A stretch of DNA of 3,393 nucleotides from Escherichia phage BZ13. The translations under genes and the position numbers were made by a program. The stretch is from sequence record FJ483838.1; one strand, 5' to 3'. Positions within the stretch are counted from its first letter, which is position 1; the number at the start of each line of letters is the position of its first letter. The notes beneath the pieces are model-generated. The model saw nothing but the letters and a program-made list of their open reading frames with translations. It had not been told where the DNA came from and did not search any database. Shown here piece by piece: positions 1 to 3,393 of the stretch.

Positions 1-20
1 ATGCCGTTAGGTTTAGGTGA

Positions 21-38
21 CGGTATATCCATATACCG
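21..38 (+). promoter_or_regulatory. Perfect inverted repeat (cggtatat / atataccg) forming a 7-8 bp hairpin immediately 5' of, and overlapping the first G of, the maturation-gene Shine-Dalgarno sequence
   Basis: Positions 21..28 are the exact reverse complement of 31..38. A realistic fold is stem 21..27 with 32..38 and loop 28..31 (ucca). G38 is the first base of GGAGG at 38..42. Confidence 0.4.
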
Positions 39-42
39 GAGG
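38..42 (+). promoter_or_regulatory. Shine-Dalgarno sequence (GGAGG) for the maturation protein gene
   Basis: GGAGG at 38..42, 4 nt upstream of the ATG at 47..49. Confidence 0.6.
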
Positions 43-46
43 AGCT

Positions 47-1644: not shown

Positions 1645-1839
1645 TTGGGTCAGAAAGCAATTAAACATAAGGAAAACCTATGTTCCGATTCACAGAGATC
1701 AAAAAGACTCTATGTATGGATCGCACTCGCGATTGTGCTGTCCGATTTCACGTCTATCTTCAGTCATTGGATTTGGGGTCTTCTGATCCTCATTCTCCAG
1801 ACTTTGATGGACTTGCCTACCTTCGTGACGAATGTTTAA
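1645..1839 (+). CDS. lys: Lysis protein (L-type single-gene lysis), 64 codons, in a third frame spanning the coat-replicase junction; start codon uncertain (apparent UUG)
   Basis: The frame is open from the TGA at 1591..1593 to the TAA at 1837..1839. It encodes a basic N-terminal region followed by a hydrophobic segment LYVWIALAIVLSDFTSIF..WIWGLLILIL that resembles the MS2 L protein segment LYVLIFLAIFLSKFT. It has the canonical levivirus L position, overlapping the replicase 5' end out of frame. There is no in-frame ATG or GTG; the first usable start is the TTG at 1645. Confidence 0.7.
   Translation: MGQKAIKHKENLCSDSQRSKRLYVWIALAIVLSDFTSIFSHWIWGLLILILQTLMDLPTFVTNV
1665..1683 (+). promoter_or_regulatory. 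Coat-protein translational operator hairpin containing the replicase SD and AUG (ACAUA-A-GG-AAAA-CC-UAUGU)
   Basis: Stem 1665..1669 pairs with 1679..1683, A1670 is unpaired, GG 1671..1672 pairs with CC 1677..1678, and the loop is AAAA 1673..1676. The replicase AUG is 1680..1682 and the SD AAGGA is 1669..1673. This is the same architecture as the MS2 operator (ACAUG-A-GG-AUUA-CC-CAUGU), with A at loop position -5 as reported for GA-type operators. Confidence 0.8.
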
Positions 1840-3278
1840 CTAAACATCCTTCACTTGGAGACAGTAATTCGGATGCACTCCGTAAGGAATTGGCATATGC
1901 CAAACTTATGGATAGTGATCAAAGATGCAAAATCCAAAACAGTAACGGATACGACCTGAGTCATATCGACTCTGGCGTACTTAACGGCATATTACTAACC
2001 GCTAAGGCTTCAATAGCGAAGTTACTTATGGGCTTTGAATCTCACTTCCTGAACGATTGTTCATTCTCCAATGGAGCCTCACAAGGGTTCAAGTTGCAGG
2101 ATGCAGCGCCGTTTAAGAAGATCGCTGGGCAAGCAACCGTTACAGCTCCTGCTTATGACCTAGCCGTGCACGCAGTTAAAACTTGCGGACCATGGCTTCG
2201 TTATATGCAGGAAACGTATGGCGATGAGACCAGATGGTTTCGTCGGGTATACGGAAACGGTTTGTTTTCTGTTCCGAAGAACAATAAAATAGATCGGGCT
2301 GCCTGTAAGGAGCCTGATATGAATATGTATCTTCAGAAAGGTGCTGGCTCTTTTATTAGACGCCGACTCCGATCTGTGAACATTGATCTTAACGATCAAA
2401 CACGCAATCAGGAATTGGCCCGACTTGGCAGCATTGATGGTTCGCTTGCTACTATTGATTTAAGTAGTGCTAGCGATTCCGTCTCTGATCGCCTCGTCTG
2501 GGATTTACTTCCGCCGCATGTTTATTCATATCTCCACCGTATCCGCTCATCTTTCACTATGATCGATGGGCAGTTACATAAGTGGAACCTATTTTCTACG
2601 ATGGGTAACGGTTTTACATTCGAGCTCGAGTCCATGATATTTTGGGCTCTGAGTAAGAGTGTAATGTCGTACCTCGGTGTTACTGGCTTACTTGGCATCT
2701 ATGGAGACGATATAATCGTCCCCACGAAATGCGCACCCCTTCTTCTACAGGTATTATCGGCTGTGAACTTTCTTCCTAACCAGAAGAAGACGTTTACTAC
2801 CGGTTATTTCCGTGAGAGTTGTGGGGCACATTTCTTTAAAGGTGCTTCAGTAAAACCTTTTTACTGCAAGCGGCCGATGGAAACCCTTCCCGATATTATG
2901 TTACTCTGTAACAGAATTCGTGGTTGGGGTACTATCGGGGGAATATCAGACCCTCGACTCTTTCCAATATGGAAGGAGTTTGCAGATATGATACCGCCTA
3001 AGTTTAAGGGTGGATGTAACCTTGATCGCGACACTTACCTTGTTTCACCGGATAAACCTGGTAAAACATTAGTTCGTGTTGCGAAGAAACGAAGTGGTTT
3101 TAACCATAAGTTTCGTAGTGACTATGAAAATGGTCGCTATATTCATTGGTTACATATGGGATCGGGCGAAGTGCTCGAAACTATATCTTCCGCCAGGTTT
3201 AGGTGCAAACCTAATTCGGAATGGAGGACACAGATCCCGCTATTTCCTCAGGAAATAGAGGCCTGCGTTCTCTCCTGA
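1680..3278 (+). CDS. rep: RNA-dependent RNA polymerase (replicase beta subunit), 532 aa
   Basis: Largest ORF and last in gene order. Contains RdRp motif A (IDLSSASDS, Asp codons at 2457..2459 and 2475..2477), a motif B-like region (SMGNGFTFELES) and motif C YGDD at 2700..2711. Size equals the GA replicase as I recall it. TGA stop at 3276..3278. Confidence 0.95.
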   Translation: MFRFTEIKKTLCMDRTRDCAVRFHVYLQSLDLGSSDPHSPDFDGLAYLRDECLTKHPSLGDSNSDALRKELAYAKLMDSDQRCKIQNSNGYDLSHIDSGVLNGILLTAKASIAKLLMGFESHFLNDCSFSNGASQGFKLQDAAPFKKIAGQATVTAPAYDLAVHAVKTCGPWLRYMQETYGDETRWFRRVYGNGLFSVPKNNKIDRAACKEPDMNMYLQKGAGSFIRRRLRSVNIDLNDQTRNQELARLGSIDGSLATIDLSSASDSVSDRLVWDLLPPHVYSYLHRIRSSFTMIDGQLHKWNLFSTMGNGFTFELESMIFWALSKSVMSYLGVTGLLGIYGDDIIVPTKCAPLLLQVLSAVNFLPNQKKTFTTGYFRESCGAHFFKGASVKPFYCKRPMETLPDIMLLCNRIRGWGTIGGISDPRLFPIWKEFADMIPPKFKGGCNLDRDTYLVSPDKPGKTLVRVAKKRSGFNHKFRSDYENGRYIHWLHMGSGEVLETISSARFRCKPNSEWRTQIPLFPQEIEACVLS

Positions 3279-3289
3279 TAGTATCAGGA
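3273..3289 (+). promoter_or_regulatory. Hairpin embedding the replicase UGA stop codon (ucctga-uagua-ucagga)
   Basis: 3273..3278 (tcctga) pairs with 3284..3289 (tcagga), with loop 3279..3283. Confidence 0.35.
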
Positions 3290-3344
3290 CCTCCCCGGAT
3301 GGGGTGGGTGGGACCGAAAGGTTCCTATGGAGGTGATATCCTCC

Positions 3345-3356
3345 CGCCGTAAGGCG
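3345..3356 (+). other. Small hairpin with a GNRA-type tetraloop (cgcc-GUAA-ggcg) in the 3' UTR
   Basis: CGCC 3345..3348 pairs with GGCG 3353..3356, loop GUAA 3349..3352. Confidence 0.35.
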
Positions 3357-3362
3357 TTTAAG

Positions 3363-3387
3363 GTGACTAGTTTGCTTGGCTAGTCAC
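3363..3387 (+). other. 3'-terminal hairpin (8 bp stem gugacuag / cuagucac, 9-nt loop) followed by the single-stranded CACCCA tail
   Basis: 3363..3370 is the exact reverse complement of 3380..3387. The loop is 3371..3379 (tttgcttgg) and the tail is 3388..3393. Confidence 0.6.
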
Positions 3388-3393
3388 CACCCA

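Follow-up and report, generated by a model that had tools for sequence, protein, structure and literature searches.

Genome identity and the 3′ terminus

The 3′ end of the RNA genome of phage BZ13 raises the question of whether its terminal ACCCA stands free behind a row of hairpins or is folded back into a closed domain, and what the last of these hairpins may contact in the virion and during replication. The window (the whole stretch of 3,393 nt that was analyzed, in which all features given below lie on the plus strand) is the genome of BZ13 strain T72 (FJ483838; Emesvirus japonicum), an F-specific RNA coliphage of genogroup II, the accession being that given for strain T72 alongside FJ483837 for DL10 and FJ483839 for DL20 (PMC3499819). 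Nucleotide identity to KU1 is 90.9% across the whole window and to GA, DL10 and DL20 it is 85-86% across 100% of the window, while the replicase protein is identical to ACT66724.1 of BZ13 strain T72. The identity to KU1 and the replicase match bear out the sequence-only reading in its view of the region as a levivirus 3′ UTR. The gene order in the ORF list is that of the group II references (maturation, coat, lysis, replicase) and the 5′ end of the genome is short by approximately 90 nt in the window.

At the other end the window finishes in ...CACCACCCA, the same terminus as in the KU1, GA, DL10, DL20, MS2, fr and DL52 records, and its closing ACCACCCA lines up with where the records of GA, KU1, MS2 and fr end. 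This agreement upholds the proposal that the true 3′ terminus lies within the window. T72, DL10, DL20 and DL52 were sequenced by primer walking (PMC3499819), and the final 20-30 nt of each may therefore stem from a primer and not count as independent evidence. We consider it about 85% probable that the region is the canonical 3′-terminal domain of a genogroup II F-specific RNA coliphage, BZ13 strain T72. The domain is real, functional and ordinary, and its discovery value is small because both the sequence and this kind of element have already been published.

Architecture of the 3′ UTR

The 3′ UTR is 115 nt long and six hairpins were identified, at 3273-3289, 3293-3304, 3310-3325, 3329-3344, 3345-3356 and 3362-3388. 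The sequence-only reading had named three, at 3273-3289, 3345-3356 and 3363-3387, all of which are present at those positions, but its list was incomplete, having overlooked 3293-3304, 3310-3325 and 3329-3344. The structure of the 3′ UTR exceeds chance expectation. For the last 134 nt the folding energy is -63.0 kcal/mol, compared with -46.2 ± 4.2 kcal/mol in shuffled sequences (z = -4.0) with none of 200 shuffles folding as well, and the folding energy of the last 127 nt (-62.1) is the minimum for the genome, its z of -5.3 ranking third among 56 windows against a genome mean of -2.3.

In computed folds the six hairpins together with the long-distance interaction ld IX (see below) form the common architecture of all five complete group II genomes, with an analogous architecture in DL52 and expanded ones in MS2, DL1 and fr. 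The 3′ UTRs of GA, KU1 and DL10/DL20 have the six hairpins of T72 in unchanged order with the same predicted UGGGU:ACCCA pairing, R1, U1 and the terminus being identical to those of T72 and the last 194 nt 89-94% identical, although their UTRs are 118-119 nt long. The UTRs of MS2, DL1 and fr extend to 171-176 nt, and DL1 and fr have seven hairpins inside ld IX compared with four in T72. MS2 and fr nevertheless share with T72 the stop-codon hairpin followed by a CCCC(G)...(C)GGGG hairpin, predicted closure of the domain by UGGGU:ACCCA, a GAAA hairpin directly 3′ of the ld IX 5′ strand, a U1 hairpin with a UGCUU loop and the CACCCA end.

Paired columns were counted on a manual helix alignment of nine group I and group II genomes, since MAFFT misaligned R1 between the groups and both 3329-3344 and 3345-3356 of T72 and KU1, and the MAFFT alignments were set aside. 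Ten pair columns had changed on both sides with pairing kept, three in R1, four in the GNRA hairpin, two in U1 and one in 3329-3344. For ld IX, the stem of 3293-3304 and the core of 3345-3356, all of them invariant, the evidence is conservation.

The search for further variants was extended to environmental sequences. Scanning for the U1/terminus pattern matched GA alone in a viral collection and gave a single chance match in a metagenome collection, on a 52-kb GC-rich contig without the hairpin, while a replicase-based locus search of IMG/VR returned GA, one MS2-like contig with a 3′ truncation and partial contigs without the UTR. A protein search with contig look-ups added two group II variants that could be used (L026 and L036). 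The contigs of the distant relatives L029-L035 either fall short of the 3′ end or finish in Illumina adapter, and are therefore unusable for covariation in ld IX.

Hairpins upstream of U1

The replicase ORF (1680-3278) is terminated by tandem stop codons, UGA UAG (3276-3281), the UGA (3276-3278) lying within the 5′ arm of R1 and the second, in-frame UAG at 3279-3281. R1 (3273-3289) is a perfect 7-bp hairpin in minimum-energy folds, UCCUGAU AGU AUCAGGA, and its counterpart has been described as the "terminal replicase hairpin R1" (PMC3561173). No group II sequence spanning R1 departs from it, and three of its pair columns differ at both positions in groups I and JS but still pair. It is followed by the hairpin CCCC GGAU GGGG (3293-3304), present in minimum-energy folds outside the ld IX domain, with a stem that is invariant in all nine genomes and a loop that varies (GGAU, GUAU, GGAC, UAAA, UAAU or UAAG).

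The first hairpin within the ld IX domain, GGGACC GAAA GGUUCC (3310-3325), carries a GNRA tetraloop that is GAAA or, in KU1, GUAA, across the nine genomes. Four of its six pair columns are altered on both sides with pairing kept, the T72 stem being of the KU1 type (GGGACC/GGUUCC) rather than the GA type (GUGACC/GGCCAC), and the environmental variants of the 3′ arm, GGUCAC and GGUCGC, pair as well. In L032 a GAAA hairpin occupies the same position with an unrelated stem. It is this hairpin, absent from the sequence-only reading, that is the conserved GNRA hairpin. The one proposed in its place, CGCC GUAA GGCG (3345-3356), does exist, with a conserved stem, but its GUAA loop is found in T72 only and is replaced by UUUAUU in KU1 and by CAAAA in GA, DL10, DL20 and the ENA contigs L026 and L036; the stem is 4 bp in T72 compared with 6 bp in the GA type. 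Between the two lies GGAGG UGAUAU CCUCC (3329-3344), a hairpin of minimum-energy folds that is specific to group II and shows a compensatory A-U to G-C change in DL10. The linker UUUAA (3357-3361) is unpaired in minimum-energy folds and precedes U1, with UUCUC or UUUUA in relatives.

The general 3′ domain of the Leviviridae consists of ld IX with hairpins U1, U2 and V (PMC3561173), with at least three hairpins inside it, and in T72 four lie between the ld IX strands. Hairpin V, with its large adenine-rich loop, is not recognizable in T72, the loops of the domain besides U1 being GAAA, UGAUAU and GUAA; V is missing from several phages and so is not obligatory (PMC3561173).

The predicted long-distance interaction ld IX and the state of the 3′ end

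The UGGGU at 3305-3309, the 5′ strand of ld IX, is complementary over a perfect 5 bp to the terminal ACCCA (3389-3393), which supplies the opposite strand and is also where the replicase initiates; both strands are invariant, without covariation. UGGGU:ACCCA is present in the unconstrained minimum-energy fold of all nine Emesvirus UTRs (the window and eight relatives from groups I and II), each folded together with the final 12 nt of the replicase ORF, stop codon included. The UGGGUG motif is also retained in L029, L030 and L032, the replicases of which are 54-59% identical. The published model has the extreme 3′ end of every known member of the Leviviridae engaged in ld IX (PMC3561173), and the terminal ...CCCA of Qbeta is likewise paired in ld IX. 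The nine UTR folds and the published model contradict the single-stranded CCCA tail that had been proposed from the sequence, and the end of the T72 genome is probably held in ld IX instead of free.

The result is sensitive to context. With 7 nt of extra upstream sequence an alternative pairing displaces ld IX, being 0.9 kcal/mol better than the fold in which ld IX is enforced, and the pair probabilities of ld IX fall to approximately 0.1. The alternative would be a few independent hairpins with a free CCCA tail bound directly by the replicase, G3306/G3307 pairing with C3290/C3291 to extend 3293-3304 in place of ld IX. At the energy minimum for 3260-3393 (-63.0 kcal/mol) ACCCA is indeed essentially unpaired, the RNAalifold consensus for the group II alignment lacks ld IX and picks the same C3290/C3291-G3306/G3307 pairing, and initiation requires an accessible 3′ end. 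However, this pairing is feasible in group II sequences only, being impossible in MS2, DL1, fr and DL52 with their GGGAC...UGGG flanks, whereas UGGGU:ACCCA is retained across the nine genomes and their UTR folds in keeping with the published ld IX (PMC3561173). We regard a free tail without ld IX as unlikely; the two states may alternate, in which case the free tail would be a second conformation and not a different element.

Far less probable still is that the hairpins act mainly as coat-protein packaging signals or in generic genome compaction, without a function tied to the 3′ end. Structure above the shuffled level runs through the entire genome (mean z = -2.3) and many stem-loops of MS2, Qbeta and AP205 touch the capsid (PMC10610835, PMC10980823), but no other part of the genome reaches a folding energy as low as that of the 3′ domain, the z of which is among the top three of 56 windows, and its U1 loop and terminal sequence are kept across genera (PMC3561173). 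An Rfam scan of the whole window (E ≤ 10) gave no match within 3273-3393, the sole phage-related match being to the MS2 operator model at 1652-1683, below the gathering threshold, and none of the six loops matches an operator-type hairpin. The last 105 nt of MS2 were also selected in a replicating mini-RNA, a self-replicating MS2 RNA that combines the first 118 nt of the 5′ UTR with these last 105 nt of the 3′ UTR (PMC8956599). Since the upstream half of ld IX falls outside this replicator, replication in vitro does not require the interaction.

Returning to the paired terminus, ld IX would enclose a compact domain of four hairpins (3310-3325, 3329-3344, 3345-3356 and U1 at 3362-3388) with R1 and 3293-3304 standing alone upstream. 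By analogy we infer that ld IX would form in vivo, and the resting RNA, on the model of MS2, Qbeta and AP205, would have its 3′ end held in ld IX, protected and with initiation conditional. The replicase holoenzyme would then have to free CCCA, with the minus strand starting at the penultimate C, as in Qbeta, where templating begins with the penultimate C and the final A is left uncopied (PMC4200798).

The terminal hairpin U1 and its possible contact with the maturation protein

U1 (3362-3388) is the 3′-terminal hairpin, with 11 bp (nine Watson-Crick and two G.U) in minimum-energy folds. The hairpin first placed at 3363-3387 corresponds to its 8-bp Watson-Crick core, which is present, but the true hairpin is longer. 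MS2 and fr each show one compensatory change in the stem, G-C to A-U and A-U to G-C. The loop, UGCUU (3373-3377), is conserved across the Leviviridae (PMC3561173), shared by U1 of Qbeta, and overlaps the tip motif GCUUGGC (3374-3380).

That the maturation protein binds the 3′ region in MS2, as raised in the sequence-only reading, is documented, there being two binding sites, one towards each genome end (PMC4751978), and the same holds for AP205, whose maturation protein grips the final stem-loop at its tip, on the motif GCUUXGC (PMC10980823). An explicit statement of contact between MS2 U1 and the maturation protein was not found in several cryo-EM and review papers; the AP205 paper has one. 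Stem-loop 88 of AP205 resembles T72 U1 in being the last stem-loop, and for T72, judged on sequence alone, GCUUGGC at 3374-3380 fits GCUUXGC, but AP205 differs from T72 in genus, host and maturation protein, which is a dimer in AP205. On this analogy the 3′ domain of T72 would make comparable protein contacts, such that in the virion the U1 tip (UGCUU, GCUUGGC) would be held by the maturation protein, which would lead the 3′ end into the cell.

A candidate replication pseudoknot

The U1 tip may have a second partner. The best upstream complement of the U1 loop (UUGCUUG, 3372-3378) is CAAGCAA at 2130-2136, 1.24 kb upstream in the replicase gene, with a duplex energy of -9.0 kcal/mol that is the best in the genome. 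All nine genomes have CAAGCAA at ORF offset 450, both partners being invariant and thus without covariation, and it lies in the stretch of the ORF with the highest third-position invariance (82% compared with 19% overall), 2088-2138 being the part of the replicase ORF most conserved at synonymous sites. The predicted accessibility of 2130-2136 varies with context and is uninformative. A longer, 11-bp register between 2124-2134 and 3370-3380 (-14.9 kcal/mol) was dropped because of its five G.U pairs and the partial melting of the U1 stem that it needs.

In Qbeta a pseudoknot of this kind is essential, and a similar one has been predicted for MS2 (PMC6847885, PMC3561173). Scanning Qbeta by the same approach recovers its partner, AAAGCAG, 1221 nt upstream, compared with 1242 nt for the complement in T72. 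By codon position the T72 site is non-homologous, CAAGCAA and the Qbeta partner lying approximately 30 aligned residues apart in the protein alignment, which rules out homology of the two sites. The candidate pairing in T72 comprises 5-7 bp, that of Qbeta, credited to Klovins and van Duin in 1999, reportedly being 8 bp.

During replication the U1 tip may pair with CAAGCAA, and such pairing would resemble the Qbeta pseudoknot in fixing the 3′ end relative to an internal replicase binding site. The U1 tip would then be a two-purpose site, occupied by the maturation protein in virions and able to pair with CAAGCAA during replication. If the pseudoknot and the maturation protein share the U1 tip, the contacts would be mutually exclusive and hence a switch between replication and packaging. 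We tentatively suggest, at somewhat short of even odds, that the Emesviruses of groups I and II have such a Qbeta-like pseudoknot between the U1 loop and CAAGCAA, with the partner moved to a non-homologous site at a similar distance from the 3′ end, and that it excludes contact with the maturation protein, thereby switching between replication and packaging.

Implications for the Emesviruses

The main gain of the analysis is a corrected map of the T72 3′ domain, with six hairpins, a probable ld IX and a relocated conserved GNRA hairpin. A replication pseudoknot has long been predicted for MS2- and GA-type phages, having been verified in Qbeta only according to the literature examined, and CAAGCAA provides a concrete candidate for it in these phages. 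If true, the pseudoknot would explain why 2088-2138 shows the highest synonymous-site conservation in the replicase gene.

Genome Identity and Termini

The structured 3′ UTR of the window is real and almost certainly functional: it is the well-described 3′-terminal domain of a group II RNA coliphage already in the literature. That the genome is already published follows from its replicase, an exact match to the annotated BZ13 replicase ACT66724.1, and from the listing of strain T72 as FJ483838, a genogroup II bird isolate (PMC3499819); the sister BZ13 strains DL10 and DL20 are FJ483837 and FJ483839. Over the full window length, nucleotide identity was 90.9% with KU1 and 85-86% with GA, BZ13 DL10 and BZ13 DL20. 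The ORFs encode maturation protein (ATG at 47, end 1219), coat protein (1235-1627), lysis protein (1645-1839) and replicase (1680-3278). KU1 nt 91 aligns with window position 1, so the deposited "complete genome" is 5′-truncated, lacking ~90 nt of UTR; the part missing before window 1-46 includes the 5′-terminal GG... hairpin.

At the other end the window stops exactly where the KU1, GA, DL10, DL20, MS2, fr and DL52 records stop (...CACCACCCA), in agreement with the sequence-only reading that the true 3′ terminus is present. Primer walking was the sequencing method for T72, DL10, DL20 and DL52, and the outermost 3′ bases of these four may therefore be primer-derived. The GA, KU1, MS2 and fr records come from other sources, and an environmental group II metatranscriptome contig (L036) gives independent confirmation up to and including the loop of the 3′-terminal hairpin U1, and partway along the 3′ arm of that hairpin. 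For ssRNA phage AVE017 the RefSeq record (NC_073941.1) ends at 3470-3483 in Illumina adapter (AGATCGGAAGAGCG) and Logan contigs L033 and L034 likewise run into adapter sequence, making these apparent 3′ UTR ends artefacts. The sole metagenome match to a 20-nt U1/terminus pattern (VFQQ010000820.1, 6328-6347) was rejected as a chance match, lying in a 52-kb GC-rich contig without the complementary 5′ arm.

An 18-nt insertion at 1628-1645 (GGCGUAGUUCUUCAGCAU), common to the window and KU1 only, separates the GA-type coat-stop/lysis-start overlap (UAAUG), with the lysis ORF therefore starting at UUG 1645-1647. The insertion also makes a perfect 7-bp hairpin (CUACGCC UAA GGCGUAG, 1618-1634) whose loop is the coat stop codon. 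The replicase operator hairpin (1652-1683, around AUG 1680) gave a weak match to the Rfam MS2 operator (18.8 bits against a gathering threshold of 40) and fits a GA-type variant with an AAAA loop instead of AUUA.

Structure and Conservation of the 3′ UTR

The three hairpins previously reported at 3273-3289, 3345-3356 and 3363-3387 all exist, while the fold of 3260-3393 adds three that had been missed. The stop-codon hairpin R1 (3273-3289; UCCUGAU AGU AUCAGGA) holds the stop UGA (3276-3278) in its 5′ arm with a second stop, UAG, directly after. It is followed by hairpins at 3293-3304 (CCCC GGAU GGGG), 3310-3325 (GGGACC GAAA GGUUCC), 3329-3344 (GGAGG UGAUAU CCUCC) and 3345-3356 (CGCC GUAA GGCG) and by U1 (3362-3388), which has 11 bp, the loop UGCUU and a Watson-Crick core at 3363-3387. 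The stability of this region exceeds chance, with a folding z-score of -4.0 for 3260-3393 (0/200 shuffles as stable) and the lowest folding energy genome-wide in the last 127 nt (z = -5.3, rank 3 of 56 windows), in a genome structured throughout (mean z = -2.3).

UTRs were folded singly, from 12 nt before the replicase ORF end (counted with its stop codon) to the 3′ terminus, for the window, group II KU1, GA, DL10 and DL20, JS-type DL52 and group I MS2, DL1 and fr. The identical six-hairpin set was found in all five complete group II sequences. The folding and covariation check proposed earlier bore out conservation of the helices among relatives, with ten pair columns on a manual helix-by-helix alignment changed on both sides with pairing kept: three in R1, four in 3310-3325, two in U1 (G-C to A-U in MS2, A-U to G-C in fr) and one in 3329-3344 (A-U to G-C in DL10). 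Among the aligned relatives there was no variation in the 3293-3304 stem, the 3345-3356 core or ld IX, the published long-distance interaction of the very 3′ terminus, and the backing for these is conservation and thermodynamics only. In the MS2 reference (NC_001417.2) the 3′ UTR at ~3447-3470 reads GGGUGCGAAAGCGGUCCGGCUCC where DL1 has GGGUCCGCGAAAGCGGUGGCUCC, a change that lowers the number of predicted hairpins from nine to seven; fr agrees with DL1 through GGGUCCGCGAAAGCGGUGGCUC and diverges after, and the MS2-DL1 difference looks like an old sequencing discrepancy.

The GNRA tetraloop had been assigned to 3345-3356, but that GUAA loop (3349-3352) is unique to this strain, its equivalent being UUUAUU in KU1 and CAAAA in GA, DL10, DL20 and the environmental group II contigs L026 and L036. 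The conserved GNRA element is hairpin 3310-3325, with a GUAA loop in KU1 and GAAA in the other eight genomes, on stems that differ by lineage (GGGACC/GGUUCC, GUGACC/GGCCAC, GCCGC/GCGGC, GUGCUC/GAGCAC). Two environmental group II contigs have the 3′-arm variants GGUCAC and GGUCGC, both of which pair, and a distant relative (L032, 54% replicase identity) retains UGGGUG and then a hairpin whose loop is GAAA but whose stem is unrelated.

The 3′ Tail

In the consensus model the CCCA tail, earlier taken as single-stranded, is paired rather than free. Terminal ACCCA (3389-3393 in the window) pairs with UGGGU (3305-3309 in the window) as ld IX in 9/9 free minimum-energy UTR folds, with UGGGU directly 3′ of the CCCC...GGGG hairpin in each. 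Published work describes ld IX for every known member of the Leviviridae (PMC3561173). A competing fold joins C3290 and C3291 to G3306 and G3307 and engages two C of the tail with two upstream G; given 7 more nt of upstream context it is 0.9 kcal/mol better and ld IX pair probabilities fall to ~0.1. ld IX is also missing from the RNAalifold consensus for the group II alignment. All nine sequences, however, are able to form ld IX, while those of group I and DL52 do not permit the competing fold. On this ground the modelling favours ld IX and treats its competitor as a possible second state. Replication in vitro does not require ld IX, the MS2 self-replicating fragment being without the 5′ strand of this interaction.

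Probable Replication Signals and Maturation Protein Binding

MS2 self-replicating RNA combines the first 118 nt of the 5′ UTR with the last 105 nt of the 3′ UTR, and the 3′ UTR therefore holds cis-acting replication signals (PMC8956599). Both Qbeta strands have CCA-3′ ends; templating begins at the penultimate C, and the terminal A is left uncopied (PMC4200798). Plus-strand replication of Qbeta needs contacts that link the 3′ UTR over long distances to internal sites, similar contacts being predicted for MS2 (PMC6847885). The 3′ domain of the window would probably work along these lines of established levivirus biology. Conservation of the U1 loop UGCUU extends from MS2 to SP and AP205 (PMC3561173). 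In AP205 virions the last stem-loop lies partly outside the capsid and its tip motif GCUUXGC is clamped by the maturation protein (PMC10980823), a motif that the U1 tip of the window (GCUUGGC, 3374-3380) fits. The MS2 maturation protein has two sites, one towards each genome end (PMC4751978), consistent with the binding to the 3′ region cited in the sequence-only reading.

A Candidate U1-Loop Pseudoknot

In Qbeta the U1 loop forms an essential pseudoknot ~1200 nt upstream, which is unverified in other phages (PMC3561173). A scan of Qbeta recovered the known partner of its U1 loop, AAAGCAG (1221 nt upstream), and in the window the best upstream complement was CAAGCAA (2130-2136; -9.0 kcal/mol, 1242 nt away). 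CAAGCA occurs at ORF offset 450 in 9/9 genomes, within an 11-nt run invariant in all. The site lies in a stretch (2088-2140) where third-position invariance over nine group I and II genomes reaches 82% in the 17 codons from 2088 against 19% overall, the maximum of the replicase ORF, which indicates an RNA-level constraint; no overlapping ORF accounts for this synonymous-site conservation. Simple homology with the Qbeta partner was rejected, the site being ~30 aligned residues off. Covariation is absent because both loop and site are invariant, and the predicted accessibility of the site varies with sequence context. Formation of this pseudoknot in Emesvirus is a tentative proposal, given a probability of roughly 0.4. 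A second AAGCAA (1655-1660), just 5′ of the operator hairpin, is kept in all five group II genomes and absent at that position from group I; it is another possible partner of the U1 loop.
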